From an uncultured Ruminococcus sp. (lineage in GTDB: Bacteria; Bacillota; Clostridia; Oscillospirales; CAG-382), in assembly GCA_964487775.1 (NCBI GenBank), contig CAZASH010000002.1, forward strand, positions 134,142 to 198,141: a stretch of DNA of 64,000 nucleotides. Direction: 5' to 3'. Of the stretch, positions 1-46,041 are shown piece after piece. Position numbers and translations under genes: made by a program. The notes under the pieces were generated by a model, which was not told the origin of the DNA, searched no databases, and saw only the letters and a program-made list of their open reading frames with translations. Position 1 is the first letter of the stretch, and every line of letters starts with the position of its first letter.

Positions 1-65
1 GGCGTGCCCGAACGGTCGGCTGTTGATGCCGCCTTTGTTGCGGGTGGCGCTCCGCTCATTTGCCA
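1..65 (-). CDS. 5' end of an unidentified CDS that runs off the window (MANERSATRNKGGINSRPFGHA...)
   Basis: ATG at 65 and open to the window edge. Third codon positions are C/G-rich like neighbouring genes. A consensus-like promoter lies about 30 nt upstream. No clear SD. Confidence 0.3.
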
Positions 66-95
66 TATAGAGAGCGGGACTTGAATCTTGTATTT

Positions 96-124
96 ATTCT
101 ATCACAGCTTTCAAAAACTGTCAA
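96..124 (-). promoter_or_regulatory. Sigma-70-type promoter, TTGACA-17-TAGAAT (read on the minus strand)
   Basis: -35 at 119-124 and -10 at 96-101 with a 17-nt spacer. It points at the ATG at 65. Confidence 0.4.
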
Positions 125-181
125 GCGGAAAACCCTTGTAGACTCATACAATTTGCAGGCGCCAAAACAGCTTTTAACTGT

Positions 182-2266
182 TTAATAAAACAGCAGGTCT
201 GAATAAGTCGGGTAAGGCCAATAGGATTTGTCGGTGAGCGTCTCGAGAATGTCCGCTTCGTTGCGCAATGCCTGCATATTCGGAATTATCACGTCGTGAC
301 GGTATGCTGCACCCTCGGCGGCGTCGGATGGCAGGCGGCTCATGCTGCGACGCAATTTTTCGACCGCGTCATACAGCGCATCCGTGTGGGCGGAAAGATC
401 GTTTATCAGCATTTTTTCTGCCCTGCACGAAACACCGATAGGTGCTTTTGCATTGACCGCATCGCAAAGCGATTTTGTATAATGAAGCGCGGCAGGCAGT
501 ATCTGCTGTATCGCCATGTCGAGCATCGTCTTTGCCTCGATGTTGATGATCTTGTTGTATTCCTCAAGGTGTATGGCGTGGCGGGCTCTGAATTCGTTTT
601 CGCTATAAACTCCGTGGCGTGTGACGAGGCTTATGTTCTTTTCCGAAAGCATCGCACGCAGGCACGCCGCAGTGGTGGTCAGGTTGCTCAGTCCGCGCCT
701 TGCCGCCTCACGCTTCCATTCCTCTGAATAGCTGTTGCCGTCAAAAAGAATGCGCTGGTGCTCTGTCAGGGTACTGCGTATAAGCTCGTGAAGTGCCTCG
801 TCGAAATCGGGCTTTGATTCAAGCTCGTCTGCAAAGCGGCAGAGCATTTCTGCCATTATCGTGTTGAGGATGATGTTGGGCTCTGCGATGGATTGCGACG
901 AGCCCGGCATACGAAATTCAAACTTGTTGCCTGTGAACGCCACGGGACTTGTGCGGTTGCGGTCTGTCGTGTCCTTGGGCAGTGCGGGCAGAACGTCGAT
1001 GCCTATGCGCAGAACAGATTTCTCGGGCTCTTGATAGTTGGTGTCGTCGATGATCGACCTGATGATGGCATTTAATTCGTCGCCGACGAAAATAGAAATG
1101 ATGGCAGGGGGTGCTTCGCTCGCACCAAGTCTGTGGTCGTTGCCTGCCGAGGTGACAGAGCAGCGCAAAAGGTCCTGATATTCGTCAACGCCTGCGATGA
1201 ACGCCGTCATAAAGACCAAAAACCTTGCGTTCTGGCTCGGAGTCTGACCGGGGCTGAAAAGATTTTCGCCCGAATCTGTCGAGAGCGACCAGTTGTTGTG
1301 CTTGCCCGAGCCGCTTATGCCCTCAAAGGGCTTTTCGTGCAGCAGGCATACAAGGTTGTGCTTGGCGGCGCATTTTTTCATTATCGCCATGATAAGCTGG
1401 TTGTCGTCGCACGCCGTGTTTGCATCTGTGAATATCGGCGCCATCTCGTGCTGGCAGGGTGCGCCCTCGTTGTGCTTGGTCTTTGACAGCACGCCGAGCC
1501 GCCAAAGCTGCTCGTCAAGGTCACGCATAAAGGTCGAAACGCGCGTCCTGATAGTGCCGAAATAATGGTCGTCGAGCTCCTGACCCTTAGGGGGCTGTGC
1601 GCCGAACAGAGTTCTGCCTGTCAAGCGCAGATCCTCACGCCCGGCATAAAGATCCTTGGGCAAAAGAAAATATTCCTGCTCTGCACCGACAGAAGCGGTG
1701 ACACGCTTTGTGTCGCGGTCGCCGAAAAGGCGCAGTATTCTGATCGCTTCTCTCGAAACCTCGTCCATCGACCTGAGCAGAGGCGTCTTTTTGTCGAGCG
1801 AATCTCCGTTGTATGAGAAAAAGCAGGTGGGGATATAAAGACTGCCGTCACGCACAAAGGCAGACGACGTCGGATCCCACGCGGTATAGCCTCTCGCCTC
1901 AAATGTGGCTCTGAGTCCGCCGTTGGGAAATGACGAGCCGTCCGACTCGCCTCTGACTAATTCCTTGCCGCTGAATTCCATGATGACTCTGCCGTCGCCT
2001 GTCGGCGAGATGAACGAGTCGTGCTTTTCGGCGGTTATGCCGGTCATGGGCTGAAACCAGTGCGTATAGTGCGTTGCGCCCTTCTCGACCGCCCATTGCT
2101 TCATAGCCTCTGCGATCTCGTTGGCGACGTCGATCGGCAGCATCGAGCCGACAGAAACACAGTGCTTCCATTCATCAAACACCTGCTTTGGCAGGCGCTC
2201 GCGCATCGTCGCTTCGTTAAAAACATCGCTGCCGAATAATTCGGGCACATTCAGTAATTCCGACAT
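182..2266 (-). CDS. glnN: Glutamine synthetase, type III (694 aa)
   Basis: The length and N-terminus (MSELLNVPELFGSDVFNE..MRERLPK) are typical of GSIII. It has a GS catalytic core, and an AGGGA SD sits upstream. Confidence 0.9.
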   Translation of the reverse strand: MSELLNVPELFGSDVFNEATMRERLPKQVFDEWKHCVSVGSMLPIDVANEIAEAMKQWAVEKGATHYTHWFQPMTGITAEKHDSFISPTGDGRVIMEFSGKELVRGESDGSSFPNGGLRATFEARGYTAWDPTSSAFVRDGSLYIPTCFFSYNGDSLDKKTPLLRSMDEVSREAIRILRLFGDRDTKRVTASVGAEQEYFLLPKDLYAGREDLRLTGRTLFGAQPPKGQELDDHYFGTIRTRVSTFMRDLDEQLWRLGVLSKTKHNEGAPCQHEMAPIFTDANTACDDNQLIMAIMKKCAAKHNLVCLLHEKPFEGISGSGKHNNWSLSTDSGENLFSPGQTPSQNARFLVFMTAFIAGVDEYQDLLRCSVTSAGNDHRLGASEAPPAIISIFVGDELNAIIRSIIDDTNYQEPEKSVLRIGIDVLPALPKDTTDRNRTSPVAFTGNKFEFRMPGSSQSIAEPNIILNTIMAEMLCRFADELESKPDFDEALHELIRSTLTEHQRILFDGNSYSEEWKREAARRGLSNLTTTAACLRAMLSEKNISLVTRHGVYSENEFRARHAIHLEEYNKIINIEAKTMLDMAIQQILPAALHYTKSLCDAVNAKAPIGVSCRAEKMLINDLSAHTDALYDAVEKLRRSMSRLPSDAAEGAAYRHDVIIPNMQALRNEADILETLTDKSYWPYPTYSDLLFY

Positions 2267-2480
2267 ATTATCCCTCTCTCCTGTGGTTTGCGTTTTAAAA
2301 ACAAAATTCGACCTTATTTTGATTGTACACCATATAGCGCCAAATGTCCAGCGGTATTTGCGGATAATATTTTTTATCGTATAATTACTTTGTGATTTTT
2401 ATGTGCCAACAACTGACAACAATTGTCAAAAACAGGAACTTTTGCGATTATAACCCTAAAAACTATGCTGAAAAGTATAA

Positions 2481-2507
2481 TAAAACAGACGGCGCAAAGG
2501 CCGTCTG
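2481..2507 (-). terminator. Rho-independent terminator after the ZIP transporter gene
   Basis: Hairpin cagacggc/gccgtctg (2486-2507), followed on the minus strand by TTTT. Confidence 0.65.
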
Positions 2508-2509
2508 AC

Positions 2510-3286
2510 TTATCCCAGCACGGTGTCAAGTGTCATCATAAGCGTAAAGCCGAGGGCAAAAAACAGCGTGCCTATGTTCGAGTGCTTGCCTGTCGACATC
2601 TCGGGTATCAATTCCTCGACGACCACATAAAGCATAGCGCCTGCGGCAAAGCTCAAAAAATAAGGCAAAACCGGGGTGACGATCTGCGCCGCACAAACAG
2701 TCAGCGCCGCTCCGACAGGCTCTACCACGCCCGAAAGCACACCGTATGCAAACGCTTTGCTCTTTTTTGTCCCCTCTGCACGAAGCGGCATTGAAATTAT
2801 AGCTCCCTCGGGAAAGTTCTGTATAGCTATGCCGAGCGAAAGTGCCAGTGCGCCTGCCGCAGTTATCTGCGTGCTTCCGCTCACTATTCCCGCATATACC
2901 ACACCGACCGCCATTCCCTCGGGAATGTTGTGCAAAGTCACGGCGAGCAGCATCATCGTTGTGCGGCTGAAAGTGCTGCGCACGCCCTCTGATTGGTCGC
3001 TGTTTTGATGAATATGCGGAATTATGCGGTCAAGCAGCAGCAAAAAGAGTATGCCAAGCCAAAAGCCCGCCACCGCAGGTATAACAGCGCCCTTGCCTCT
3101 TTCGGCTGCCTGCTCCATGGCAGGTATCAGCAGGCTCCATACAGATGCTGCCACCATGACACCTGCGGCAAAGCCTGTCAGCGCACGCTGCAATTGTGTG
3201 CCGAGCGAGCGCTTCATAAAGAATACGCACGCCGACCCGAGCACCGTGCCTAAAAACGGCAGAAGTATTCCGTAAAAAATCGTCAT
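2510..3286 (-). CDS. ZIP family divalent metal (zinc) transporter, ZupT-like
   Basis: 258-aa polytopic protein. It has a His-rich loop (HIHQNSDQSEG) and the HNIPEG..A / QNFPEG motifs typical of ZIP/ZupT. Confidence 0.85.
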   Translation of the reverse strand: MTIFYGILLPFLGTVLGSACVFFMKRSLGTQLQRALTGFAAGVMVAASVWSLLIPAMEQAAERGKGAVIPAVAGFWLGILFLLLLDRIIPHIHQNSDQSEGVRSTFSRTTMMLLAVTLHNIPEGMAVGVVYAGIVSGSTQITAAGALALSLGIAIQNFPEGAIISMPLRAEGTKKSKAFAYGVLSGVVEPVGAALTVCAAQIVTPVLPYFLSFAAGAMLYVVVEELIPEMSTGKHSNIGTLFFALGFTLMMTLDTVLG

Positions 3287-3313
3287 ATAGTTCCTTATCC
3301 TATCTTGTAATCG

Positions 3314-3760
3314 TTATAATATCTGGGTTATCGCGGCGCTCAGCAGAGCCACCGCATAATGCCGCTTCTCGGGCATAAATGAAAAGCGGATGCGCTTTGT
3401 GTTTCGCCACCAAAGCAGGTCGATAATCAGCAGATCAAACAGCCCCAACCCCTCGCCGAGTGCGAGAAAGAACCAAAATGCCGACCAAAAGTCGTTGAGA
3501 CCGAGAAAACCCTTTAAGGCTGCACTCAACACAGAAAATATCACGGTAAACAGCAGCAGATTTCCGAGCAGTATGGATATGATAGATTTCTCTTTCGGTG
3601 CAGTTTTGCCGAAATCCTTGTGTGCTCTCACCGCCTGCTGAACATTATCGGGATAGGAACGAAGTCCCGCAAGATTTTTCTTGTCCGCGCCTGTGCCGAG
3701 GAAGCAGCAGAACCAATAGAAAAGGTAAAATAGAAATGCAGTTGTGATTTTTACAATCAT
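3314..3760 (-). CDS. Uncharacterised membrane protein, paralog B of the tandem pair
   Basis: 148 aa with 3-4 TM segments. It shares YPD/YPP..Q and D..(I/L)D....(N)xKRIR(F/L) motifs with the adjacent 165-aa ORF. Confidence 0.5.
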   Translation of the reverse strand: MIVKITTAFLFYLFYWFCCFLGTGADKKNLAGLRSYPDNVQQAVRAHKDFGKTAPKEKSIISILLGNLLLFTVIFSVLSAALKGFLGLNDFWSAFWFFLALGEGLGLFDLLIIDLLWWRNTKRIRFSFMPEKRHYAVALLSAAITQIL

Positions 3761-3773
3761 CGTTTATTCCCAC

Positions 3774-4271
3774 TTACCAAATCCAAAGCATCAATCCACT
3801 GCTCAAAATACTTGCCAAAAACGCAAAGGGCACCACAGGCAAACAAACCTTAACATGAAACCACTTTTGATGATATTCCTTTTCCATGTGTTCCGTTCCG
3901 GGAAGTCTGATACGCTTAATATTGGCAAACAAAACCCAATCCAAAAAGAAAGTATCCCATGCAAACAAACAGAGCATATAAATCCAAATCAAACCAACGC
4001 CTTGCAAAAAGGTTTTTGCTCCTGCCAAGTGCAACATCCAGGCAAACAAGAATAAAAAAGCAATCACGGCAAGCAACTTTTTTGCAAGCATTAGTTTCGT
4101 CAATTTCTTTTTGGCGGCTTCTCTATGCTGAGAGCGGTAATATTCCGCTTGAATTTCGGGCGGATAGTCACTGATAAAGGTTAGGGGACTTATCAAAAGC
4201 ATACCGAAAACAAGTATACTAAAAATCAGTAGCATTATGCCAATTTCAATTAATATTACTGAAAGAGTCAT
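3774..4271 (-). CDS. Uncharacterised membrane protein, paralog A of the tandem pair
   Basis: 165 aa with 4 TM segments. TAATG overlap with the upstream gene. Shares motifs with 3314-3760. Confidence 0.55.
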   Translation of the reverse strand: MTLSVILIEIGIMLLIFSILVFGMLLISPLTFISDYPPEIQAEYYRSQHREAAKKKLTKLMLAKKLLAVIAFLFLFAWMLHLAGAKTFLQGVGLIWIYMLCLFAWDTFFLDWVLFANIKRIRLPGTEHMEKEYHQKWFHVKVCLPVVPFAFLASILSSGLMLWIW

Positions 4272-4975
4272 TATGTATTTCTCCTAAAGCCTTGTTCATC
4301 CACATATTCGGGATGTTCTTTCAGATATTCGTTCCTGTCCCCGCAGATGGTGTAATCGCACTTGTCCCCGATCGCACATGTGTTCGCCCGTACCAGCTGT
4401 GCGTGGAGCAGTTCCATAGCGGCATAATCTGGATTGCACATGGCGGGCATAACTTCTAATAAACCATGCTGTTTGGCAAATTCCACAATGGGACAGGCTG
4501 TAAATTCGTAATAGATTGGTTTGTCCTTATCATAGGGTGCAACGGACATTTCGTAGTCATGCCATGCGTTGAACTTCTTTTCAGAGGCAGCAAACGAGAA
4601 GTACAAAATGCGCTTCCAAAACGGCTTGTTGCAGTCCACAAAGGTCAGCTTACGAAATGTAGGCAAAAACAGCTCGTTTTCCATTCCTTCGATTTCTCCA
4701 ACGCTTGTCACTGCCTTGCAGACGGTGTAATAACTCATCAAAGCAATACAGTCATAAGTGCCGCCAACGCTGTTGTGGAAATTTTTACTGCCGCCGAGAT
4801 CGGTGCGCCAGTCGGACAGATAGGTAACATATTGCTGCTGTACCACCTCCCAAACTTTTTCCTGCTCCGCTACCGGATAATGCAGAGCAATTTTTGCCTT
4901 GATCTGCTTTTTGCAGGGCTTTGAGTACAGCACATGGCAGGTGCGGTCGAATTGCAGTTCCTCGTCTTTCATCAC
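4271..4975 (-). CDS. L-2-amino-thiazoline-4-carboxylic acid (ATC) hydrolase family protein
   Basis: The C-terminal pattern CP..EFAK.HGL.E.MP..C..DYA..E.L......R..T.A.GDKCDY matches my recollection of the ATC_hydrolase family. ATGA overlap with the upstream MTase. Confidence 0.6.
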   Translation of the reverse strand: MMKDEELQFDRTCHVLYSKPCKKQIKAKIALHYPVAEQEKVWEVVQQQYVTYLSDWRTDLGGSKNFHNSVGGTYDCIALMSYYTVCKAVTSVGEIEGMENELFLPTFRKLTFVDCNKPFWKRILYFSFAASEKKFNAWHDYEMSVAPYDKDKPIYYEFTACPIVEFAKQHGLLEVMPAMCNPDYAAMELLHAQLVRANTCAIGDKCDYTICGDRNEYLKEHPEYVDEQGFRRNT

Positions 4976-5763
4976 TTTCTACCCACCAGCAGTGTCGAGC
5001 CTTGCAGCATCAGGCGACTCGCTTCTTTCTTCGTCATAAACATCCCGTCAGTGGTGTCGATCATGCGAACTTCCGCATAGCCCATTTCATGAAGTTTCTG
5101 GCAGAAAGCCTCCATATCGCCGTAGCGGTTTTTGCCCATGAGGTCGTGGATGGCAAAGGTGCCGCCCTTTTTCAGGGTACGCAGGGTTTCAAGTAAAAGC
5201 TCCTGCTTATCTATGCCTGAAATATTGTGATATACATAATTGCTTGTCACGGCATCGAAGGTTTCGTCGGCAAATGGCAGTTTGGTGGCATCGGCTTTTT
5301 GGAACTCCGTGTTGCTGACCCCTTCCGCTTTGGCATTGCTTTGGCAGAGGGGCAGACTGAACTCCGCATAATCCTTGCCCCAGCGGTCAACACCCACCAT
5401 GCGCCCGCACGGATTTCGCTTGGCGCAGGCAATAGTCAATGCGCCGCTGCCGCAGCCAATATCCAAGCCGACACCGCCGTCGGGCAATTTGACATAGTCG
5501 GCAATACCCTCGATCATCTGCCTTGAGAGCTGCCGCTTGCCGTCATATGAAAAAGCATTGTATGCCGTGATACTCCATTGCAGTGTTTTTCCACAACCGA
5601 TGGTAGCGACGGCAAACACAATGGCAAGGATAATTCGCCATGCTTTTGTTACCCAAAGCCCGCAAGCACCAAACAGTATCAGCGCCGCCAAAGATACCGC
5701 CGTTGCCAACGCCATGCCGACGATCAACATTTTAGGTACCCAGTTTTTGTAATTCGGTTTCAT
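4972..5763 (-). CDS. Membrane-anchored class I SAM-dependent methyltransferase
   Basis: Start moved to MKPNYKNW, which has an AAAGGAG SD and an ATGA overlap with the upstream stop. Two N-terminal TM helices, then motif I GLDIGCGSGALT. Confidence 0.8.
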   Translation of the reverse strand: MKPNYKNWVPKMLIVGMALATAVSLAALILFGACGLWVTKAWRIILAIVFAVATIGCGKTLQWSITAYNAFSYDGKRQLSRQMIEGIADYVKLPDGGVGLDIGCGSGALTIACAKRNPCGRMVGVDRWGKDYAEFSLPLCQSNAKAEGVSNTEFQKADATKLPFADETFDAVTSNYVYHNISGIDKQELLLETLRTLKKGGTFAIHDLMGKNRYGDMEAFCQKLHEMGYAEVRMIDTTDGMFMTKKEASRLMLQGSTLLVGRK

Positions 5764-6371
5764 ATTTTTTCTCCTTTCATGCATTCCGCATAAGTCAGCG
5801 GAAAGCTTGCATTCAGCACTTCGCTTTTCTGTACTTTCCACCCGTGCTTTTGCAGGAAATCCAGATAGCTTTCGCTCGACCATTTGCTGTACTGCCTAAA
5901 GCCTGCAAGCTTCATAAAAAACGCTTTGACATTGCCAAAAAAATCATTGCCTGCGTGGGTGAAGGTGGGGGCGATCAGCACGCCGTCATCTTTAAGCACA
6001 CGGCGAATTTCTGCCAGCGCCTTTTCAGGCTCCGGCACGATGTGCAGAGCGTTTGATACGATCGCTACGTCAAAGGAACTGTCGGCATAGGGCAGATGAA
6101 ACATATCCTGTACGGAAAAATGTAATTTTGAGGAGGAAACGCCTTGTTTTGCCTGCTCAATCATCTCGGATGAAGCATCGGTGGCTTCAATACGGTCAGC
6201 AGAACGGACAATGTGCTTGGCAATCAATCCCGTTCCCGTGGCAAGCTCCAACACCTGCTTATGTTCTACTATGGGACAAATCAGTGCATACATTTGCTCG
6301 TAAGCTTTACGATCTTTTCGCATAAAGCGGTCATAGATTTTTGCCGTGCGATCCCAAAAATTCTTTGCCAT
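5760..6371 (-). CDS. Class I SAM-dependent methyltransferase (soluble)
   Basis: Start moved to MAKNFWDR, which has an AAGGAG SD. Motif I VLELATGTGLIA. Post-I and post-II acidic residues are present. Confidence 0.8.
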   Translation of the reverse strand: MAKNFWDRTAKIYDRFMRKDRKAYEQMYALICPIVEHKQVLELATGTGLIAKHIVRSADRIEATDASSEMIEQAKQGVSSSKLHFSVQDMFHLPYADSSFDVAIVSNALHIVPEPEKALAEIRRVLKDDGVLIAPTFTHAGNDFFGNVKAFFMKLAGFRQYSKWSSESYLDFLQKHGWKVQKSEVLNASFPLTYAECMKGEKI

Positions 6372-6580: not shown

Positions 6581-6613
6581 CTCCGCACTTCATTACAAGG
6601 TGCGGAGTTTTTT
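6581..6613 (+). terminator. Hairpin + T6 (ctccgcac..gtgcggag tttttt) with no upstream plus-strand gene to terminate
   Basis: 8-bp GC-rich stem, 11-nt loop, T6 run. The upstream genes are divergent. Confidence 0.5.
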
Positions 6614-6643
6614 ATGTCTGCGGCGGCAAAATCCTCTGTTCTA

Positions 6644-6671
6644 TTGACTTTTGCGGCAAAAAGAGTATAAT
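6644..6671 (+). promoter_or_regulatory. Promoter TTGACT-16-TATAAT inside repeat copy 1
   Basis: Near-consensus hexamers. It drives the leader to the ORF at 6752. Confidence 0.55.
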
Positions 6672-6751
6672 TATGAGTACGAGGAAGGCAGAATTGTTCG
6701 CGCCACCGATTGAATATTCTTGCTTCGATTTAATCCATTTGGAGGGATATT

Positions 6752-7235
6752 ATGCCAAATAAAACTTATGACATCGATCAATGTACATCATCGCTCAAAT
6801 CCGAAGTAACGATTTTAACTGTTGTTGCCGTTGTTCTTCTCATGCTATTTGCAACTGTACTTGTTTTCTCCATACGGCAGATCAAAAATGATAAATCAAA
6901 AAAAACTACCATATGTTCAAATCATTGCTGCTTTAATAATATTCATTTTTTTATCAGTTTCTTTAGGAGCCCAAATAGCATTTTATTCTAAAGACTTATC
7001 TCAAAATTCTTTTGTGCAATACGAGGGCGTGGCTAAAATACACACGAAAAAGCAACTGATTTTTGGTGGGATCCCTACAGGATACACTGAATATGTGATT
7101 TCGTTTGAATTAGATGGAGAACAAGTTGATCTTTACATGAGGAAGGATCCCGGTTTCGTAGGTGAAGTCGATGATGTCTTTGTTGTTTATGCCAAATATT
7201 CAAAACACATTATCAATTTTGAGATTACACAATAG
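6752..7235 (+). pseudogene. Small membrane protein split by a frame change; one fewer A in the A8 run at 6898-6905 would join the two pieces
   Basis: ORF 6752-6991 has a strong GGAGGG SD and one TM. ORF 6822-7235 is open in the +1 frame across the overlap. Removing one A gives ...SIRQIKNDKSKKLPYVQIIAALIIF... as a continuous ~160-aa two-TM protein. No recognisable family. Confidence 0.4.
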
Positions 7236-7242
7236 GTATTCA

Positions 7243-7275
7243 CTCCGCACTTCATTACAAGGTGCGGAGTTTTTT
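7243..7275 (+). terminator. Rho-independent terminator (identical to 6581-6613)
   Basis: Same hairpin + T6, 8 nt after the stop at 7235. Confidence 0.7.
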
Positions 7276-7305
7276 ATGTCTGCGGCGGCAAAATCCTCTG
7301 TTCTA

Positions 7306-7334
7306 TTGACATTTCGGGCAAAAAAGAGCATAAT
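7306..7334 (+). promoter_or_regulatory. Promoter TTGACA-17-CATAAT inside repeat copy 2
   Basis: Consensus -35 and a 17-nt spacer. About 240 nt of leader lie before the MATE start. Confidence 0.55.
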
Positions 7335-7576
7335 TACGAGTACGAGGAAGTCAGAATTGTCCGTGCCACTGAGATGGATATTGCTCTCTTCGGCGAGGTC
7401 GTAGCTGTTACATCGCACTCTAAAACCGATAAGTTCTTGAGGAAGGTTTTTGATGAACCTGAAGCGGTAACAAGCCGACACGACGAAAAAACGATTTTGT
7501 ATATCCGAACAGGAAAGAAAAGAGTTTCAAAAGCTTCTTCAAAGGCTTTTGAAAACAGAAAGTGGGAATTAATAAA

Positions 7577-8932
7577 ATGCCAGCAGAAGCACAAAAAGAA
7601 AACCGCATGGGAACGACAAAAATGTTCCCCTTAATCATGTCCATGTCATTGCCTGCAATGTTTTCTATGCTTATTCAAGCGCTGTATAACATTGTGGACA
7701 GTTACTTTGTGGCGCAGGTCAGCGACAAAGCGGTGTCGGCGCTGTCGCTTGCCTATCCTATTCAAAACCTGCTGATCGCCTTTGCGGTCGGTACTGCGGC
7801 AGGTGTTACCTCGCTTATTTCGCGACGGCTCGGACAAGGCCGCAGGGAAGAGGCAGAATCAACCGCAACTCACGGCGTTATACTCAGCATCATAACATGG
7901 CTTGCGTTCGCTGTCTTTGGCGCATTTTTCACCACTCCTTTCTTTAGGATGTTTGAGTCCGACCCCGAAATCATCCTCATGGGTGATCAGTATCTCTCTA
8001 TTTGCTGTATCTTTGCGTTTGGACAGTTTGTTGTGACTATGCTTGAAAAGATCCTGCAAGCCACAGGCAATATGTTTTGGCCGATGATGTTTCAGTTGGT
8101 CGGCGCTATAATCAATATCATAGTCGATCCGATCCTGATATTCGGATTGTTTGGCTTTCCGGCTATGGGCGTTACCGGCGCAGCCATTGCCACGGTGGCA
8201 GGGCAGATACTTTCGATGATCTTGGCGATTATTGTGGTCGCACGACACCCATCTATCAAGATTCCTCTCAAGGGCTTCCGCTTTCACGGAGGCATCGTTA
8301 AGGATATTTATGCCGTTGGCATCCCTGCTATTGTTATGCAGGCGATCAGCACGATAATGAATATGGCGATCAACGCCATTCTTGCTGCCTTCTCTACGGC
8401 GGCATACACTGTATTCGGCCTGTATTTCAAGCTGCGCTCTTTTGTGTTTATGCCTGTTTTGGGTCTGAATCAGGGGTTGATGCCGATCATGGGATTCAAT
8501 TATGGTGCTGATAAGAAGAAGCGCCTGCTCCAGTCGTTCTATCAAGGCTGCGGCATTGCACTTGCTATTATGCTGCTCGGTGTGCTTGCCTTTATGCTTT
8601 TGCCAGGGCAGCTTCTCGGATTCTTCAATCCGACAGAAGAGCTCTTGCAGGTCGGCATTCCCGCACTGCGTATCATCAGCCTTTGCTTCCCGCTTGCGGC
8701 TTTGGGATTGGTGTCTTCGAATATGTATCAGGCCATCGGACGAGGCAAGTACAGTCTTGTTATGTCTTTGATGCGTCAGCTTGTGGTTCTTGTGCCTGTG
8801 GCATGGCTGCTGGCAAAGGTGACCAATGATGTCGGCATGGTATGGTGGGCATTCCCTATTGCAGAAGCCATATCGATGGCAGTAAGCGTTGCGTTCTTTG
8901 TGCACTTATATAAAACGGAATTGAAGAAATAA
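7577..8932 (+). CDS. MATE family efflux transporter
   Basis: N-terminal signature MSMSLPAMFSMLIQALYNIVDSYFV, 12 predicted TM segments, ~450 aa. I prefer the ATG at 7577 over the GTG at 7562. Confidence 0.9.
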   Translation: MPAEAQKENRMGTTKMFPLIMSMSLPAMFSMLIQALYNIVDSYFVAQVSDKAVSALSLAYPIQNLLIAFAVGTAAGVTSLISRRLGQGRREEAESTATHGVILSIITWLAFAVFGAFFTTPFFRMFESDPEIILMGDQYLSICCIFAFGQFVVTMLEKILQATGNMFWPMMFQLVGAIINIIVDPILIFGLFGFPAMGVTGAAIATVAGQILSMILAIIVVARHPSIKIPLKGFRFHGGIVKDIYAVGIPAIVMQAISTIMNMAINAILAAFSTAAYTVFGLYFKLRSFVFMPVLGLNQGLMPIMGFNYGADKKKRLLQSFYQGCGIALAIMLLGVLAFMLLPGQLLGFFNPTEELLQVGIPALRIISLCFPLAALGLVSSNMYQAIGRGKYSLVMSLMRQLVVLVPVAWLLAKVTNDVGMVWWAFPIAEAISMAVSVAFFVHLYKTELKK

Positions 8933-9021
8933 AGAAGAGACGGCTTATCTAAATAGATGAGGCGCAGAAAGCTTATGATGAAAACAAAGCCCGAATCTCG
9001 GAAATAGTATAAAACAAAAGC

Positions 9022-16191: not shown

Positions 16192-16309
16192 TGTTTTGTT
16201 TGCTCAAAAAAGCCTGATAATCTTTGCACGGCGAAAAGAAGTCCTTTTGTATGAGCGATGAAAGAATGGATTTTTTAGTATTCATCGTTTGCCGTAATTT
16301 ATGTTTTTT

Positions 16310-19316: not shown

Positions 19317-20312
19317 TTAATTGGTTTTGTATGTCGGCCATACACGCGGCACAAACAGGCTCTCGTAGGTCGAGATGGCATATCTGTCTGTCATGCTTGC
19401 GAGATGGTCGCAGACGGCTCTTTCGGCGCCGTCGGACTCTATGATGCCCTTTAATTCGTCGGGCAATTTGTCTATGTGAGAAATGTAATATTCAAACAGG
19501 CTCTGCATCAGACCAAGCACCTTTGCATCCTCGCTCCGTGCATCTCTGTGACCATAGACACGTTCGAACATAAACGCTCTCAGGTCCATCATTGCCTGTC
19601 CCTCGGGCTCTGTCATGCCTATCTCGCCGCCGAGGACTCCGTTTTTGATGACGGCGGTGACCATCGAGGTTATGCGCTCGCTGTGCGTGTTGCCGAGAAT
19701 ATCGCATATGTCGCGGGGAATGTCGTCTTTGTCGAGCAGTCCCGCACGAACGGCATCGTCGATGTCGTGATTGAGATAGGCTATGCGGTCGGCGTATTTT
19801 ATAAGCTGTCCCTCGAGCGTGCACGCTTTGTTGCTGCCCGAGTGGTTGACTATGCCGTCACGCACCTCATAGGTAAGGTTGAGCGCCTCTATTTTGTCGA
19901 CGACTCTGAGGCTCTGCTCGTAATGCTTAAATCCGCAGGGCATTATCTCATCGAGCGCCCTCTCGCCGGAATGTCCGAACGGAGTATGCCCGAGGTCGTG
20001 TCCGAGCGCTGCCGCCTCGGTGAGGTCCTCGTTGAGACACATCGCTCTCGCCAGTGTGCGCGCTATCTGCGTCACCTCGAGCGTGTGAGTCAGTCTTGTG
20101 CGGTAGTGGTCCCCCTCGGGAGAGATAAACACCTGCATCTTGTTCATCAGTCGCCTGAATGCCTTGCAATGCGTTATGCGGTCGCGGTCACGCTGAAAAT
20201 CGGTGCGCACGGGGCAGTCGCCTATCGGGTGCAGTCTGCCTTTGGTATCGGCGGTGTGAAATGCCTGCGGACACAGATAAGAGCGCTCGCGCTCGAGAGT
20301 TACGTTTTTCAT
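19317..20312 (-). CDS. dgt: dGTP triphosphohydrolase-like HD-domain protein
   Basis: Start moved to MKNVTLERER (TAATG overlap with the upstream stop). HD motif HDLGHTPFGH. 331 aa. Confidence 0.85.
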   Translation of the reverse strand: MKNVTLERERSYLCPQAFHTADTKGRLHPIGDCPVRTDFQRDRDRITHCKAFRRLMNKMQVFISPEGDHYRTRLTHTLEVTQIARTLARAMCLNEDLTEAAALGHDLGHTPFGHSGERALDEIMPCGFKHYEQSLRVVDKIEALNLTYEVRDGIVNHSGSNKACTLEGQLIKYADRIAYLNHDIDDAVRAGLLDKDDIPRDICDILGNTHSERITSMVTAVIKNGVLGGEIGMTEPEGQAMMDLRAFMFERVYGHRDARSEDAKVLGLMQSLFEYYISHIDKLPDELKGIIESDGAERAVCDHLASMTDRYAISTYESLFVPRVWPTYKTN

Positions 20313-21973
20313 TATTTTATGTCCCTCCGTTTGAATGAGGATATTGCGCAGTACAGCCAGAGTGCGGTAAGCAGTATGCACACGATAAGTCCGTATGCGA
20401 TGCTTGTGCCTGATGTCGAGACTATCGACAACTGATCGAATATATCGCCGTAATACGACGAGCAGATAAGACCTGCATCGGTGTGCTCCCAAAGCGCCGT
20501 GTATGTCAAGGGGAAAAATTTGCATATCTTAGCGCCGAACAGGAAGCTGACTATCAGCGAGGACACTGTCGAAAATACTGTCGATGCTATGCCGATGAGC
20601 ATTCCTGCCATGGCGTTGCGTGTCAGTGTCGCCATCAGCATGGCGAGCGTGCCGAGCATTATCGCCGAAACACAGCTGCACAGAAATTCAAACAGCAGAT
20701 ATACAGGATATGCTATCGCCGTGATATTGCCGAATATGCTGACAGGCACAGGGACAAAAAAGTCGCCGATGCCTGTTATCAGCAGGCTTCCGACAGTATA
20801 AGCGACAAAGCACACCGAATAGACCGACATCACCGCAATGACAGAGGCGACGAACTTGCTTTGCATTATCCTTGCTCTGCTGACAGGTCTGATGACCAGC
20901 ATGTTTATCGTCTTTGCCGAAAACTCGCTTGCTATGGCAGTGCTGAAGATTATCAGCGCAAATATGTACAGCAGCGAGAAATTGCCAAAGAAGCCCGATG
21001 CGGCATTGCGTGCATCGCCCATCGACGAGTCGTATATGCCGTGCTCGAGGCAGTACCTGCCTGCCGCAAGCTGCTTGTGGTAATTGTCAAACCTTGCCTC
21101 GCAGTCGCTGAGGTATTGCTCATATCCGCCGAGTGACAGCGGCATCGCAGTGGATGCATATTGCGATTCGCTGTAAATATCATCGGCTTCGTATTTGTGA
21201 TTGTTATAGAAATCAAATATGCCGTTTGCCTGCTTAGATAATGGGTCGTTAAAGTCGAGATCGTTTTGAATGATATATTCGCAGGCGTATATGACAGACT
21301 CATACAGGTCCTTGTTGAGTGCGTATGAGAGCGCTTCTGCCCTTGAGAGCTCGCCTATCGATGCATATTGCTTTTCGAACGACTCGTATTCTTTTTTAAA
21401 GCCTGCCAGCTTGCCTGCGATATAGTCCGAATATTTTGCCGTGTCCAGCCATTGTCTGCATTCGTCGTAGAGCCTTGCGTTCTCTGAATGCATCGAATAA
21501 TCTTCGTTCATTAGTCCGAGATAGCCTGTCAGAAAGTTGGCATATTCTTTGCCGTTCTCGATCTGGTCGACTATGACCTTTGAAAAGGCGGTGCTCCAGA
21601 CCTCGTCAGAAAATCTGCTGTATCGCCAGTCGTTGTGATCGATGATCCCTATGCTGTCGGCATATCTTAATGCTTCGGCATACGCAAGGCTTTCGAGTAT
21701 CACGAGCCCTTCGGGAACTCTGGAACTTTTGTAGTCAAAAAAGTAGACACTGTAGCCAGAATAGCCGTTGGCGATGGCGTTTGCGTTGTCGATATAGCTT
21801 TGTGCCGTTTCCGCCGTAGTCTGTGTATCTGCCAGGCTCATGCTGAGTGCGGTGGTTGCAAGGCTAAGCAGAGTGGCGGCTATAAGCAGTGCCGCAAGCA
21901 CAGTGTTCAGCTTGCGTGCACGTAATTTGATAAGCTCGTTTTTTAAGAGCGTTGATAATTTTGCTGTTTTCAT
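20312..21973 (-). CDS. ABC-2 type transporter permease with a large (~300 aa) extracytoplasmic N-terminal domain
   Basis: N-terminal TM, long soluble segment, then a C-terminal 5-6 TM block beginning FSAKTINMLVIRPVSRARIMQSKF (ABC-2 style). Its RBS and ATG lie inside 50-bp repeat copy 1. Confidence 0.7.
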   Translation of the reverse strand: MKTAKLSTLLKNELIKLRARKLNTVLAALLIAATLLSLATTALSMSLADTQTTAETAQSYIDNANAIANGYSGYSVYFFDYKSSRVPEGLVILESLAYAEALRYADSIGIIDHNDWRYSRFSDEVWSTAFSKVIVDQIENGKEYANFLTGYLGLMNEDYSMHSENARLYDECRQWLDTAKYSDYIAGKLAGFKKEYESFEKQYASIGELSRAEALSYALNKDLYESVIYACEYIIQNDLDFNDPLSKQANGIFDFYNNHKYEADDIYSESQYASTAMPLSLGGYEQYLSDCEARFDNYHKQLAAGRYCLEHGIYDSSMGDARNAASGFFGNFSLLYIFALIIFSTAIASEFSAKTINMLVIRPVSRARIMQSKFVASVIAVMSVYSVCFVAYTVGSLLITGIGDFFVPVPVSIFGNITAIAYPVYLLFEFLCSCVSAIMLGTLAMLMATLTRNAMAGMLIGIASTVFSTVSSLIVSFLFGAKICKFFPLTYTALWEHTDAGLICSSYYGDIFDQLSIVSTSGTSIAYGLIVCILLTALWLYCAISSFKRRDIK

Positions 21974-22016
21974 TTGTCACCTCTTTATGATATCTGCTGT
22001 GGAGCAGAGTGGGTGA
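21967..22016 (-). repeat. 50-bp perfect direct repeat, copy 1 (orphan ATPase 3' end + RBS + ATG of the permease)
   Basis: Identical to 23719-23768. It encodes ..ITHSAPQQIS* AGAGGTGACAA ATGAAAA on the minus strand. Confidence 0.95.
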
Positions 22017-22025
22017 ATAGAATGC

Positions 22026-22971
22026 TTAACTTGGTAGTTGCATTGTTGTTGTGGATGTATAAATTGGGCTTTCTCCGTTTTTAAATGCGGCTTGGCTTGG
22101 AAATATTTCAAGTTTGATTACACATTCGCAATTTGATGTATATGACGTGGTTGTTTTATAGTACTGTCCTACTGCCATGTCAGGCGTGGCAAAGTCAAGA
22201 GATACGACAATAGAAAGTGCTTCCGCAACCTTTAATGACACCTGTGCTATTTTGTTTAAAGTATTCGTTGGTGTAAAAAACAATACAATGCTCGGAATGG
22301 CAACAGTTACTTTTTGCAAAGTAATGTCAGATTGCGTTATTGTTTGATACGTGACCTTTGTTGCAAAAGGACGGTCGAACAGCGTCGAATAGTGCTTGTG
22401 CTCGTTGTAGTTTCTGGCTACGATAGTAGCTGAAACAGTAATGCCACAAATGAATCCTTTCGTTTCTATGGTTATTGTATGCACTCCTTTTTTCTGCCAG
22501 ACATGTTTAGCATTGTGCCTTGGGTTCTGCAAGCAGATGGATACTCATATCCAAGTTTAAAATCAAAATAGGATGTAACAGGAATATCGCCCTTTACATT
22601 AACAACTATAGTTAACATATGATCGGTTGTTATCGATGCGGAAGTTACAGATATGTAATTGTCTATTAATGTAGAGCTGGTTTGAATCGATTGCAATGAA
22701 ACGCCTGAATTTTCGTTAGCAATATTTTGGCTTTTAGAGGTACGTTCTAATAATTCAAAAAAACAGCGTTAACATTTTTGGAGTTTTCCACTGTGTGCGA
22801 CAACGCATATAGTTCATCTAAAGAGCACGATCTTAAGAATTCATCTGTCAAAATACATTCTGTGCTTTCAGCGTTGACGAGAATGTTGATTGAGTTTATA
22901 GATACTGCGAACAACAAGGCTATCGATAACGCAAGACTAATGGTGCTTTTAATTAGTTTTAGGTGTTTCAT
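22026..22971 (-). pseudogene. Secreted protein of unknown family present as three ORF fragments; +1 in the T7 run (22757-22763) and +1 in the A6 run (22488-22493) would rejoin them
   Basis: Fragment 1 (22747-22971) has a signal peptide, MKHLKLIKSTISLALSIALLFAVS. Fragments 2 and 3 lack ATG starts. Each downstream frame opens only a few codons before the run. Restored product is ~315 aa. Confidence 0.4.
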
Positions 22972-23013
22972 GGAATTTCCTTTCTGATTTGCTCTTTAAT
23001 TATTAAATAAACA

Positions 23014-23725
23014 TCATTCATCGATTTTGATGGTGACATTATCTGTGTATATGCACATTGCGGTCACGATGTCATCGCTGACTAATGCAAATGTATAAAT
23101 ATGATTATCCTTGAAAAAGAAGCCTGTATTTGTTGCTGTATTGAATTGGGAGTTATAATTGCGAGACAAATACGAGAGTATTTCTAAAGCAAAGATGTTT
23201 CTGACGCATTTCGATGCATTGATTTTTATGGAGTAGAAAGCATTATTATCGTTCGCCAGAAACTGATCTACTGTGGTTATTGATGCGCCTAAATACGGAG
23301 AAAAAGAGCGCACTAAAACGGTGTCTTGATCGCTTTCTACAACATAATCAGAACGCACAACATCGGATGCTCTTATTATGTTTAAATTGCTTGGAATGCT
23401 CTCATATGCAGTGTAACAAGACGAATTATAATCGAGTACAATAAGAACCGCGATTGCCAAAAGTGCGATAAATAGCGCAATATAAAAAGATGCTTTAAGC
23501 ACCGCTTTTGCATTAATTTTAACGATAAAAAGGTTGTATGCGAATGCCATAGCGAATTCAAGTGCCAAAATCCAGTATATAATCGCTTGCTTGAATAGGA
23601 TATTGCATATTGCAAGCCCCCCCTTGTAATGCTTTTATAATTGAAATAATGGCTAACAATAAATAGATATATCGTATCGCCAAATTAAGAATGGTGCTGT
23701 TTGTATCATTCTTTTCATTTTTCAT
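23014..23725 (-). pseudogene. Polytopic membrane protein of unknown family, interrupted at a G7 run (23617-23623)
   Basis: ATG at 23725 uses the duplicated permease RBS and start (MKNEKNDTNSTILNLAIRYIYLLLAIISIIKALQGG). That frame stops at codon 56. With G6 it reads through into the 184-aa ORF 23014-23568 (..LAICNILFKQAIIYWILALEFAMAF..). Confidence 0.45.
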
Positions 23726-23768
23726 TTGTCACCTCTTTATGATATCTGCTGTGGAGCAGAGTGGGTGA
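23719..23768 (-). repeat. 50-bp perfect direct repeat, copy 2 (authentic ATPase 3' end + RBS + ATG now opening the cassette)
   Basis: Identical to 21967-22016. Confidence 0.95.
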
Positions 23769-24651
23769 TCTCGAGATATGCATCCTCGAGCGTGGGCTCT
23801 GACGAGGTCAGCGAATAGACCTCTATGCCTGCCAGCACCAGCTCGCGGTTTATTGCCGCAGCGGCAGGCTTGGGCAATATGCAGGTGACGAAATTGCTGT
23901 CGGCGCTCGCCGTGGGATCATGCCTTTTGATAAGCTCGAGCGCCTTTTGTGTGTCAGAGACCTCGAGCCTGTGGGCACGTGGCTGAGCAGGATCTGCAAG
24001 TGTAAATTCCTCGATCGATCTGGTGGCTATTATCTCGCCTCGCTCGATTATGCAGACTCTGTTGCACATAAGCTGCAGCTCGGGCAATTGATGCGACGAG
24101 ACCAGCACCGCACAGCCCGAGAGGGCGCACGAGCGCAAAATATCACGCAGCTCTTTTATGCCTGCAGGGTCGAGTCCGTTGGTCGGCTCGTCGAGTATCA
24201 AAAGCTTTGGCGATGCCAAAAGCGCCTGTGCTATGCCGAGGCGCTGCCTCATGCCGAGCGAATAGCCCTTGACCTTTTCGTCAAGCCTGCCCGAAAGCCT
24301 GACCATGTCGGCGACTGCCGCAACACGGTCATCCGAAACGCCGTATATCCGTGCGAACTGCATAAGATTTTCACGCCCTGTGAGGTAAGAATAGAGGTCG
24401 GGGCTCTCGACTATCGCTCCGACGCTTTCGAGTGCGAGCTCGTGCTCGTCGCAGATGTCGTGTCCGCATATTCTGACCTTGCCGCTGTCTGCCTTGAGCA
24501 AGCCGAGTATTATCTTTATGCACGTCGTCTTGCCTGCGCCGTTAGGACCGAGAAACCCGGTTATATCGCCTTCGCCGACATTGAAGCTGACATTATTAAG
24601 CACTCTGCGAGCGCCGAAATTCTTGCTGACACCGCTGACTTCGAGAACCAT
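23737..24651 (-). CDS. ABC transporter ATP-binding protein
   Basis: Start moved to MVLEVSGVSKNF (GGAGGTG SD). Walker A GPNGAGKTT, signature YSLGMRQRL, Walker B LLILDEPTNGLD. Confidence 0.9.
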   Translation of the reverse strand: MVLEVSGVSKNFGARRVLNNVSFNVGEGDITGFLGPNGAGKTTCIKIILGLLKADSGKVRICGHDICDEHELALESVGAIVESPDLYSYLTGRENLMQFARIYGVSDDRVAAVADMVRLSGRLDEKVKGYSLGMRQRLGIAQALLASPKLLILDEPTNGLDPAGIKELRDILRSCALSGCAVLVSSHQLPELQLMCNRVCIIERGEIIATRSIEEFTLADPAQPRAHRLEVSDTQKALELIKRHDPTASADSNFVTCILPKPAAAAINRELVLAGIEVYSLTSSEPTLEDAYLEITHSAPQQIS

Positions 24652-39610: not shown

Positions 39611-41065
39611 TTATTTTGTGCCGCAATATCTTTCGTATGCTTTGATATATTCATAATAGTAGTTTGTTGCATCGCTGTCGAGTTCTTCATATGTGTCTGC
39701 GTCAAATGCCATTCTATAGAACTCAAGCACCGGCTCGAGGTAGCCTCTTTTTGCAAAATCATCCAAGAGCTCGGGATGCGTTCTAAACCAGGAAACAGGA
39801 TAAACCACGCCGTCAACATTGAATGACGAGATGGGCGCAATCTCTGATCTTATCTTGTCGGTATCGCCTTCGTAAATAATCTTTGCATAGTGCTTGTTGA
39901 TGTCAATGTGATTATAGTTTTGTCTGGGGTCGCAAAAATAATTAATTACTTGTTCAAAGTTTGGCATACTGCCATACATTGCCGTTTCTTCTTCATAGAT
40001 CAAATCAAATACGCTAAAATAATACTCAACCGCTTCAAGTATTTGCTCCAGTGTAATGCCTTCGCCTTTTAAATACTCAAAGATATAATACTCTGCCGGC
40101 AACTGCATTTTTTGAAGTCTCTCTTCGGCGTTTGATTCGTCGCCGTTATAGTACGCGATTTTGTCATAATCATCTCTGATCTTTTTGACCTCTGCTTTTT
40201 GCTCGTCGGTGAGCAGACCGGGCAGATTATAGTCAATCGCCAATTTGTTGTATACTGTATCATAGGGATTGTCTCTTGTATACAAGCTGTTGTTTACATA
40301 GCGACCGTGAAATTCGTCGATTGAGGCGCCGCCAAATTTGATCTCTGAGTAAGGGAGCGACCAAAACTCAACAACGCGCCCATCGGGAAAATTGATTTGC
40401 TCTTTATCATACTTTATTTCTGTCAATTCAACAGCGCCTTTGACATAGTCGGTTATCTTGACACCCCAAACCGTGTTATCAAATTTCCAAACAAATAGAT
40501 CATATTTATCGGAAACAAAATAGGCAGATGGCGTACTGGTGGGATACTGATGTCGAAAGCGATACTTATATTCAAAATGCTTGAAAGGAAAATCAAGTAT
40601 GGCGTATCCATCTGCTGTTACTAAGTAATAAAAGCTCTTAACAGAGGGATATAAGTAGTCTGCATCTCTTTCGGGATATTCTTCTTTTTGCAAATCGAAA
40701 TAACTACTTTTAGGACCATAAGAGGATATGCATATATAATGCCAGGGAATTTTCTCGTCGCGTAATATGCGATGCTCATTATATCTTTCAAATTTATATC
40801 GGCTGTCTTGACTTGATGTATCGTCGTTCGAAGAATCATCAGATGGGTCATCCGAATGATCATCCGACGGTTCTTGTGACAATTCATCCGAGGCGTCCTT
40901 TGAAGGCTCATCGGATATGTCGTCCGGCGATTCATTCGAAGGAGTCTCGCTGACCCCCGATACATCTGCCACATCGCTCGGCGTGTCTTGGGGTGTGGTG
41001 TCAGCGCATGAGCATACACAAAGTAATAGCGATATGCAAAGTAAAAATACAAATGCTTTTTTCAT
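39611..41065 (-). CDS. Lipoprotein of unknown function with an acidic Ser/Asp/Pro-rich linker
   Basis: Signal peptide + lipobox (LLLCVCSC). About 80 aa of low complexity (SDEPSKDASDELSQEPSDDHSDDPSDDSSNDD). The gene is visibly AT-rich. Confidence 0.6.
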   Translation of the reverse strand: MKKAFVFLLCISLLLCVCSCADTTPQDTPSDVADVSGVSETPSNESPDDISDEPSKDASDELSQEPSDDHSDDPSDDSSNDDTSSQDSRYKFERYNEHRILRDEKIPWHYICISSYGPKSSYFDLQKEEYPERDADYLYPSVKSFYYLVTADGYAILDFPFKHFEYKYRFRHQYPTSTPSAYFVSDKYDLFVWKFDNTVWGVKITDYVKGAVELTEIKYDKEQINFPDGRVVEFWSLPYSEIKFGGASIDEFHGRYVNNSLYTRDNPYDTVYNKLAIDYNLPGLLTDEQKAEVKKIRDDYDKIAYYNGDESNAEERLQKMQLPAEYYIFEYLKGEGITLEQILEAVEYYFSVFDLIYEEETAMYGSMPNFEQVINYFCDPRQNYNHIDINKHYAKIIYEGDTDKIRSEIAPISSFNVDGVVYPVSWFRTHPELLDDFAKRGYLEPVLEFYRMAFDADTYEELDSDATNYYYEYIKAYERYCGTK

Positions 41066-45944: not shown

Positions 45945-46041
45945 TGTCATCACCTCATGATGTATTATACCACATCTATTTCCCAAAATCAAGCTTTTTT
46001 CGATTTTGGGAAATAGAATCGATAGCCGAGGCAGCAATGCT

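Follow-up and report, generated by a model that had tools for sequence, protein, structure and literature searches.

Introduction

Transposons and casposons surround the DNA that they insert with a direct repeat of the target, 2-15 bp in length, and no target base is lost. Integrase-borne islands reconstitute the 3' end of the gene that they target. Smaller, recombinase-free gene units are known as well, including the minimal mobile elements of Neisseria and phage morons, which lie between conserved host genes or signals; the former move by homologous exchange of their flanks without duplication, and the latter carry a promoter and a terminator of their own. Here, we describe a cassette that resembles several of these systems in part. 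It lies in a 64-kb stretch of DNA (hereafter, the window) from an uncultured Ruminococcus sp. (contig CAZASH010000002.1, positions 134,142 to 198,141), where 1702 bp of AT-rich DNA with two genes, termed A and B, separate the ATPase and permease genes of an ABC transporter operon and are flanked by a perfect 50-bp direct repeat of the junction between those genes.

The likeness to transposons and casposons lies in the direct target repeat around the insert and in the intact target. However, the repeat measures 50 bp, the ends of the insert lie inside or adjoin genes, and the cassette has no terminal inverted repeats, transposase, casposase or conserved ends. Nor is the fixed, short duplication of insertion sequences, DDE transposons and casposons matched, as the repeats measure 50 bp here, 59 nt around a related module in another contig (L032) and 150 nt around a second cassette of the window. 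Integrase-borne islands and cis-mobilizable elements (CIMEs) are similar in layout: the repeat holds the 3' end of the target gene, which stays intact, and the flanking repeats match a single site in empty genomes, identically so in the related locus L004. In contrast to such islands, the element is 1.7 kb long, its target is a junction of protein-coding genes and not a tRNA gene, no integrase is encoded in the 64 kb, and none of seven relatives carries another element at the site. Like minimal mobile elements and morons, the cassette is a small unit between conserved host genes, but it has neither the exchange without duplication of the former nor the promoter and terminator of the latter.

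Integron cassettes are likewise promoterless and expressed from host signals at the point of insertion, although attC, attI and IntI are absent from our cassette and its flanks are a perfect duplication of host sequence. Orphan toxin-immunity cassettes of Rhs and contact-dependent inhibition (CDI) systems provide a parallel in content, since the domain of gene B follows an RHS core in some homologues, an orphan gene tail is duplicated, and a toxin-like gene is degraded while its partner is kept. Here, however, the tail comes from an unrelated ABC ATPase and not from a toxin core, the B protein carries a signal peptide of its own, gene A comes before gene B, and an immunity role for A is putative. 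Finally, as in phase-variable contingency genes, a coding-sequence tract of six, seven or eight G residues sets whether gene A is in frame and differs from sample to sample, although this variation is known between samples and not within a single culture.

Results

A perfect 50-bp repeat of an operon junction encloses AT-rich DNA

The two copies of the repeat (21967-22016 and 23719-23768) agreed in 50 of 50 nucleotides upon exact comparison, as a preliminary description of the window, made by reading its letters, had stated. Similarity drops off sharply past both ends, and extending the repeat to 57 nt adds only four matches in seven positions. The chance origin of such a repeat within 64 kb is effectively impossible. 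Only one other family of direct repeats of at least 25 nt flanks anything in the window (6569-6662/7231-7324), and both families enclose AT-rich inserts. On the minus strand, the repeat consists of the last nine codons of the ATPase gene, its TAA stop, an AGAGGTG ribosome-binding site, the ATG start codon and AAAA. One copy is continuous with the ATPase gene, and the other precedes the 553-aa ABC-2 permease. The content of the repeat was thus given correctly in the preliminary description, apart from the orphan ATPase tail, which does not end in ITHSAPQQIS and a stop but in FTHSAPQQIS and a stop, because the repeat starts at codon position 2. As also described there, the ATG of the ATPase-side copy opens the first cassette open reading frame (ORF), to which we add that this ORF is frameshifted in the window at a G7 tract, and the last cassette ORF stops 9 nt before the permease-side copy. 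A tandem ATGAAAA at the left junction was considered as a trace of microhomology and dropped, as the N-E-K codons of gene A explain it more simply.

The composition of the 1702 bp differs from that of the flanking DNA. Windowed GC content is 0.32-0.40 (about 0.37) in the cassette versus about 0.52 in the flanks, and the GC content at third codon positions (GC3) is 0.36-0.41 versus 0.59-0.68 in the genes for the ATPase, the permease, an HD-domain protein and dnaG, confirming that the cassette is more AT-rich than its surroundings. None of the cassette ORFs matched a recombinase in Pfam, NCBIfam, PHROG or PADLOC, and the gene tables of the 64-kb window, which describe core housekeeping DNA, list no recombinase or transposase. 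Similarly, we detected no inverted repeat at the cassette ends, no tRNA in the window by tRNA scan, and no Rfam match either in the window or in five loci with related modules. The earlier statement that integrase, transposase, terminal inverted repeats and tRNA target are all missing is therefore extended from the cassette to the entire window. On the coding strand, the cassette contains no strong terminator. The exact 50-mer had no match in JGI metagenome contigs or IMG/VR, and a blastn search with the cassette returned no match in phage and plasmid collections. The 50-mer itself folds better than shuffled sequences (z = -3.1).

Related loci carry the empty site

One scan of genome contigs, together with look-ups of permease homologues, provided seven related loci, with nucleotide identities of 98% (L012-L015), 92-94% (L016 and L004, the latter from a metagenome-assembled genome) and 78% (L017). 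The ATPase gene is directly followed by the permease gene, with a single junction, in 7/7. BLAST comparison of L004 or L012 with the window yielded two collinear segments that overlap by exactly 50 nt; adding 1702 bp and a second 50-mer to the empty allele gives the filled one, and no host base was lost. The 50-mer is present once and in identical form in L004, and differs from it by one single-nucleotide polymorphism (SNP) in L012-L015. Since all relatives have empty sites with a single 50-mer and nothing is missing from the filled allele, the insertion is derived and specific to one near-clonal lineage, and 50 bp of the target were duplicated with it.

These results strongly support the earlier proposal that foreign DNA entered precisely at the boundary of the ATPase and permease genes and that the translational-coupling signals were duplicated in the process; the empty-site alleles that it anticipated were present at all seven loci, each with one copy of the 50-mer. 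The opposite possibility, an ancient and fixed arrangement, is not supported, as the relatives are empty and the repeats are still perfect. All seven sites are empty, with no alternative element in any of them, and the cassette was never met in another context.

Assemblies at k=141 read through both copies of the repeat

The same arrangement, 99.9% identical, was found in four MEGAHIT k=141 contigs (L001, L005, L006 and L007) from separate ENA assemblies, in which both copies are read through. Because these contigs cross both copies, and a 50-bp repeat cannot mislead an assembly at k=141, the arrangement is not an assembly artefact, a concern that the preliminary description had raised. As for the Logan contigs built at k=31 (L002 and L003), the repeat is precisely where they break, which leaves the cassette as a contig of its own, 1761-1783 nt in length, in one version in at least 20 samples. 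The ERZ accessions are consecutive and probably derive from one study, and the SRR runs come from several series.

The host operon

The ATPase and permease genes (Table 1) lie side by side in all relatives and together constitute an ABC-2 type exporter operon. The best NCBIfam matches of the ATPase were to lantibiotic-protection and DrrA types, both below cutoffs, a likeness that may be coincidental; the exact ATPase protein occurs on 43 contigs. An HD-domain gene follows the permease, and then dnaG and sigA (window 19317-24651). This order, from the ATPase to sigA, is kept down to the relative with 78% identity, and the cassette looks to be placed inside an apparent macromolecular-synthesis operon.

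Table 1. Positions of the cassette, its host genes and the second cassette in the window
Feature	Position	Strand	Description
ABC transporter ATP-binding protein, 304 aa	23737..24651	-	First gene of the operon; Pfam ABC_tran, E=1.3e-31; last nine codons and stop lie inside repeat copy 1
Repeat copy 1, ATPase side	23719..23768	-	3' end of the ATPase gene, TAA, AGAGGTG and ATGAAAA; ATG now starts gene A; identical to the single 50-mer of the L004 empty site
Cassette gene A	23014..23725	-	236 aa with G6; about three transmembrane helices and a C-terminal domain of ~130 aa; G7 in the window yields ORFs of 55 aa and 184 aa
Poly-G tract in gene A	23617..23623	-	C7 on the plus strand; G6 = ON, G7 and G8 = OFF; from an alignment of nine cassette copies
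Cassette gene B	22026..22971	-	Pseudogene of a secreted protein of ~315 aa; single-base deletions in homopolymers at 22757-22763 and 22488-22493
Repeat copy 2, permease side	21967..22016	-	Orphan ATPase tail, ribosome-binding site and permease ATG; begins 9 nt after the gene B stop
ABC-2 type permease, 553 aa	20312..21973	-	Pfam ABC2_membrane_2 and ABC2_membrane_4; stop overlaps the start of the HD-domain gene
Second AT-rich cassette	6581..7392	+	Small membrane protein at 6752-7235 (ORFs 6752-6991 and 6822-7235), possibly frameshifted at the A8 tract 6898-6905; GC3 0.33

Gene A is switched by a poly-G tract between samples

The transmembrane helices of the gene A product, about three in number, are N-terminal. 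Comparing nine near-identical copies of the cassette, we found the poly-G tract as G6 in L006, L010 and L011, as G7 in the window, L001, L005 and L009, and as G8 in L007 and L008; the intact 236-aa gene was called in the three copies with G6. Outside the tract, cassettes from different samples differ by 0-2 SNPs. Runs of at least six G or C residues are rare in this DNA, with only four in the entire 64 kb, and the homologues of gene A have no tract at the corresponding position. The members of the gene A cluster on record are 236, 235, 184 and 178 aa long. By its sequence, gene A bears the signature of a phase-variable contingency gene, its frame set by the G6/G7/G8 tract.

A word-based homology search with gene A recovered only gene A itself, and its homologues emerged only via synteny with the homologues of gene B. 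The restored gene A product aligns with the 249-256-aa proteins encoded before B homologues in L024, L032 and L035 (23-32% identity) over a stretch that includes the poly-G site. The window protein is shorter than these homologues by about 10 N-terminal residues, which places the 5' breakpoint inside the ancestral gene A and makes the present start a fusion to the ATG-AAA-A of the permease. Single-sequence structure prediction of the product was too poor to use (predicted local distance difference test score, pLDDT, of 52). An assignment to Peptidase_C92, from a weak and unconfirmed match (E=0.063), was rejected; the C92 protein encoded in L035 is secreted and distinct from the gene A product.

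Gene B is a decayed member of a family linked to RHS proteins

When an intact homologue was compared with gene B by tblastn, three matches in three frames were obtained, covering residues 11-313. The two breaks are single-base losses, one in a T-run and one in an A-run, and are identical in every copy. With two fixed homopolymer frameshifts, gene B is, to judge from its reading frames, dead here. Used as the query of an exhaustive HMMER search, the 168-aa C-terminal ORF of gene B collected 37 family representatives, and a search with the restored B protein identified intact homologues of 307-315 aa with 55-60% identity. An AlphaFold model of one homologue, computed from a 38-sequence alignment (pLDDT 80.6), predicts a signal peptide, a helical region and a beta-sandwich bearing a hydrophobic helical hairpin, and it had no PDB match at E<=1e-3. 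In IMG/VR, no member of the B family was found.

In two family members, P0024 and P0015, the B domain is located immediately C-terminal to an RHS repeat-associated core (TIGR03696, 60 and 63 bits, respectively; cutoff 32.5). In RHS/YD proteins, the position after the RHS core is that of the variable toxin domain. P0015 starts inside the RHS core, like an orphan toxin fragment.

Genes A and B belong to an unnamed two-gene module

Neither cassette protein had been placeable in a family in the preliminary description. This was not borne out: judging by gene order and protein similarity, the cassette is a member of a conserved, unnamed two-gene module family, in which a 249-256-aa membrane protein precedes the B homologue wherever a longer context exists. 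In L024-L031, the pair has an arabinofuranosidase-like gene and a GFO_IDH gene as its neighbours; in L032/L033, it separates a DUF5696 gene from AcnX; and in L035, it lies among other secreted proteins. These modules are more AT-rich than their hosts. Their nucleotide similarity to each other is confined to the coding regions and the non-coding ends are not conserved, indicating that the modules have no defined element ends. On either side of the module of L032/L033 lies a copy of a 59-nt repeat with 90% identity (L032 6682-6740 and 9095-9151), which corresponds to the intrinsic terminator of the upstream DUF5696 gene, and no convincing flanking repeat was found around the module of L024.

Two further observations concern these loci. 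In L032, about 470 nt of GC-richer non-coding sequence, with no Rfam match, lie upstream of gene A. In L035 (positions 1-6078), the pair belongs to an array that encodes a Peptidase_C92 protein with a signal peptide, a 372-aa lipoprotein, a 266-aa secreted protein and a 128-aa small partner, and that resembles a secreted-effector island.

Since the B domain occupies the toxin position and A is always its multi-pass membrane companion, the module may be a toxin with a membrane partner. Specifically, it may encode a secreted toxin together with a membrane protein that acts in immunity or maturation. In that case, the window would have kept A, in phase-variable form, next to a dead B, in the manner of orphan immunity genes.

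A second repeat-flanked cassette in the window

The second AT-rich cassette (Table 1) is flanked by a 150-nt repeat with 89% identity (6581-6727 and 7243-7392). Within this repeat lie a terminator hairpin that looks bidirectional, a promoter with -35 and -10 elements, and the first part of the leader of a MATE efflux gene, and the identity along it declines from 100% to about 70%. The contigs that cover the region (L018-L021) are all of the same strain as the window, so no empty-site comparison is available for it. Two observations were made on the surrounding sequence. The MATE gene has a 5' leader of about 240 nt past the promoter (window 7330-7576), without an Rfam match, which may be an unrecognised regulatory leader. 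L018 is identical to the window over about 5 kb and then 10-15% divergent at both ends (window 3366-3800 and 8800-8941), the pattern of a recombination mosaic between strains.

The preliminary description had taken the two cassettes of the window as signs of a recurrent mechanism of insertion or exchange. Part of this stands, as the repeat of the second cassette does consist of host signals. The mechanism itself is not established, given that this repeat is 150 nt long and 89% identical, that the L024 module lacks a repeat and that no ends are conserved; no motif is common to the ends of the two window cassettes. Overall, the existence of three repeat-flanked cassettes (50, 150 and 59 nt) whose repeats are hairpin-bearing host signals is suggestive, and a recurrent mechanism is possible. 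A dedicated mechanism is improbable because the repeat lengths are unequal, the ends are not shared, and survivorship bias would operate.

Discussion

Illegitimate insertion best fits the combination of arbitrary breakpoints, unconserved ends and an exact target duplication. With somewhat better than even confidence, we explain the locus by the illegitimate, non-site-specific insertion of a foreign, trimmed A-B module of 1702 bp, which copied 50 bp of its target. Our best guess at a description is an illegitimately inserted genomic islet with an unusually long target duplication. The AT-rich foreign fragment entered between the ABC ATPase and permease genes in one clonal lineage of a gut Ruminococcus-like species. 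Its 5' breakpoint lies about 10 codons inside gene A, so that the ribosome-binding site, ATG and AAA-A duplicated from the permease would serve the translation of A. At the other end, the breakpoint lies 9 nt past the gene B stop, and the permease's own signals are retained in the second copy of the repeat. Since the cassette has no strong terminator, transcription could run on through it into the permease, the HD gene, dnaG and sigA.

The duplication may have originated by staggered-break fill-in with capture of the fragment. Alternatively, replication may have switched templates, departing at the A-run of ATGAAAA and resuming 50 nt further upstream; the target junction can form a hairpin, which, we infer, would favour fork stalling. 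Selection would have spared only those insertions after which the permease, the HD gene, dnaG and sigA were still expressed, and it would be sufficient alone to explain why the duplicated piece is an expression signal. After the insertion, B decayed via its two fixed homopolymer frameshifts, and A, which may be an immunity-like partner of B, would have been switched by slippage among G6, G7 and G8. The repeats, once formed, would permit scarless excision and homology-driven re-insertion.

Several points weigh against illegitimate insertion. No donor is known against which microhomology could be verified; at the left junction there is no more than an ambiguous A-run, and at the right one there is nothing. 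Our literature search found no bacterial precedent for a 50-bp target duplication at an illegitimate insertion. In addition, the two other repeat-flanked AT-rich cassettes, the second one of the window and that of L032, hint at something more systematic than a one-off accident.

The main alternative, possible if on balance unlikely, is a Campbell-type integration of a circle that carried the cassette and one 50-mer, through RecA or through a site-specific recombinase acting in trans, as for CIMEs. The observed structure is exactly the attL-island-attR product of such an event, in which the repeat rebuilds the 3' end of the target gene. Moreover, variable repeat lengths (50, 59 and 150 nt) fit a crossover that depends on the length of homology, and the diverged repeats of the second cassette and of L032 could be donor and recipient alleles. 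However, an earlier illegitimate event would still be required to join the 50-mer to the truncated gene A. A recombinase is absent from the 64 kb, the 50-mer is absent from IMG/VR and the JGI metagenomes as searched, the other sites seen are all empty with none holding another element, and the cassette was not met elsewhere.

Broader schemes would make long duplications a rule. One is that small AT-rich cassettes of gut Clostridia, the A-B module included, are moved by an undescribed process without a cassette-encoded recombinase, generate duplications of 50-165 bp at hairpin-bearing expression signals, so that cassette and downstream host gene would both retain complete signals, and can then be scarlessly excised and re-inserted by homology in naive strains, which we consider improbable. 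We judge as quite improbable an undescribed dedicated process by which small cassettes, promoterless or AT-rich, would be placed at expression signals with a hairpin and 50-165 bp of these signals duplicated. It draws on the three cassettes, in each of which the repeat is a hairpin-containing host expression signal (50 and 150 nt in the window, 59 nt in L032), and on the presence of the same A-B module family in two of the three. Yet the duplications differ in length, no end sequences are common to the modules, a flanking repeat is missing from L024, neither the cassette nor the window encodes a candidate enzyme, and survivorship accounts for the repeats being expression signals.

It is highly improbable that the cassette is ancestral and that the empty sites result from deletion between the repeats. 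Recombination between 50-bp repeats would indeed delete the cassette scarlessly, so empty sites are no formal proof of its earlier absence, but the composition is foreign, only one near-clonal lineage carries the cassette and every lineage at 98%, 92-94% or 78% identity is empty, the two copies of the repeat have stayed perfect, and gene A is an N-terminally truncated fusion. Finally, we give next to no credence to an assembly artefact or chimera, which the k=31 Logan contigs that stop at the repeat might suggest, in view of the four k=141 contigs that span both copies, the identical cassette in runs of several SRA series, and an NCBI record that holds exact gene A products.

The locus provides a clean natural example of horizontally acquired genes wired into a housekeeping operon, ahead of dnaG and sigA; owing to the duplicated translation signals, nothing is broken by the insertion. 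A further outcome is an unnamed, RHS-toxin-linked two-gene module that occupies differing sites in gut Firmicutes, sometimes with long flanking target duplications, and that is reduced here to a phase-variable membrane protein beside a dead toxin-like gene. If long duplications proved to be systematic, they would represent a mode of insertion overlooked by current mobile-element finders, which would miss such insertions because they seek recombinases, inverted repeats or tRNA targets.

Other AT-rich segments

Two further low-GC segments of the window have no flanking repeats of at least 25 nt: a 484-aa ORF without a Pfam match at 39611-41065 (GC about 0.42) and an AAA_14/DUF4143 ATPase gene at 44754-46037 (GC about 0.44). 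Additional AT-rich DNA was seen in a relative. Between sigA and gltX (window 16211-16288), L004 contains about 1.6 kb that are absent from the window (L004 12621-14336), made up of two tandem AT-rich cassettes. Each of them combines a promoter-bearing repeat of about 110 nt (84-88% identity) with one of two paralogous small membrane-anchored proteins, of 162 and 139 aa.

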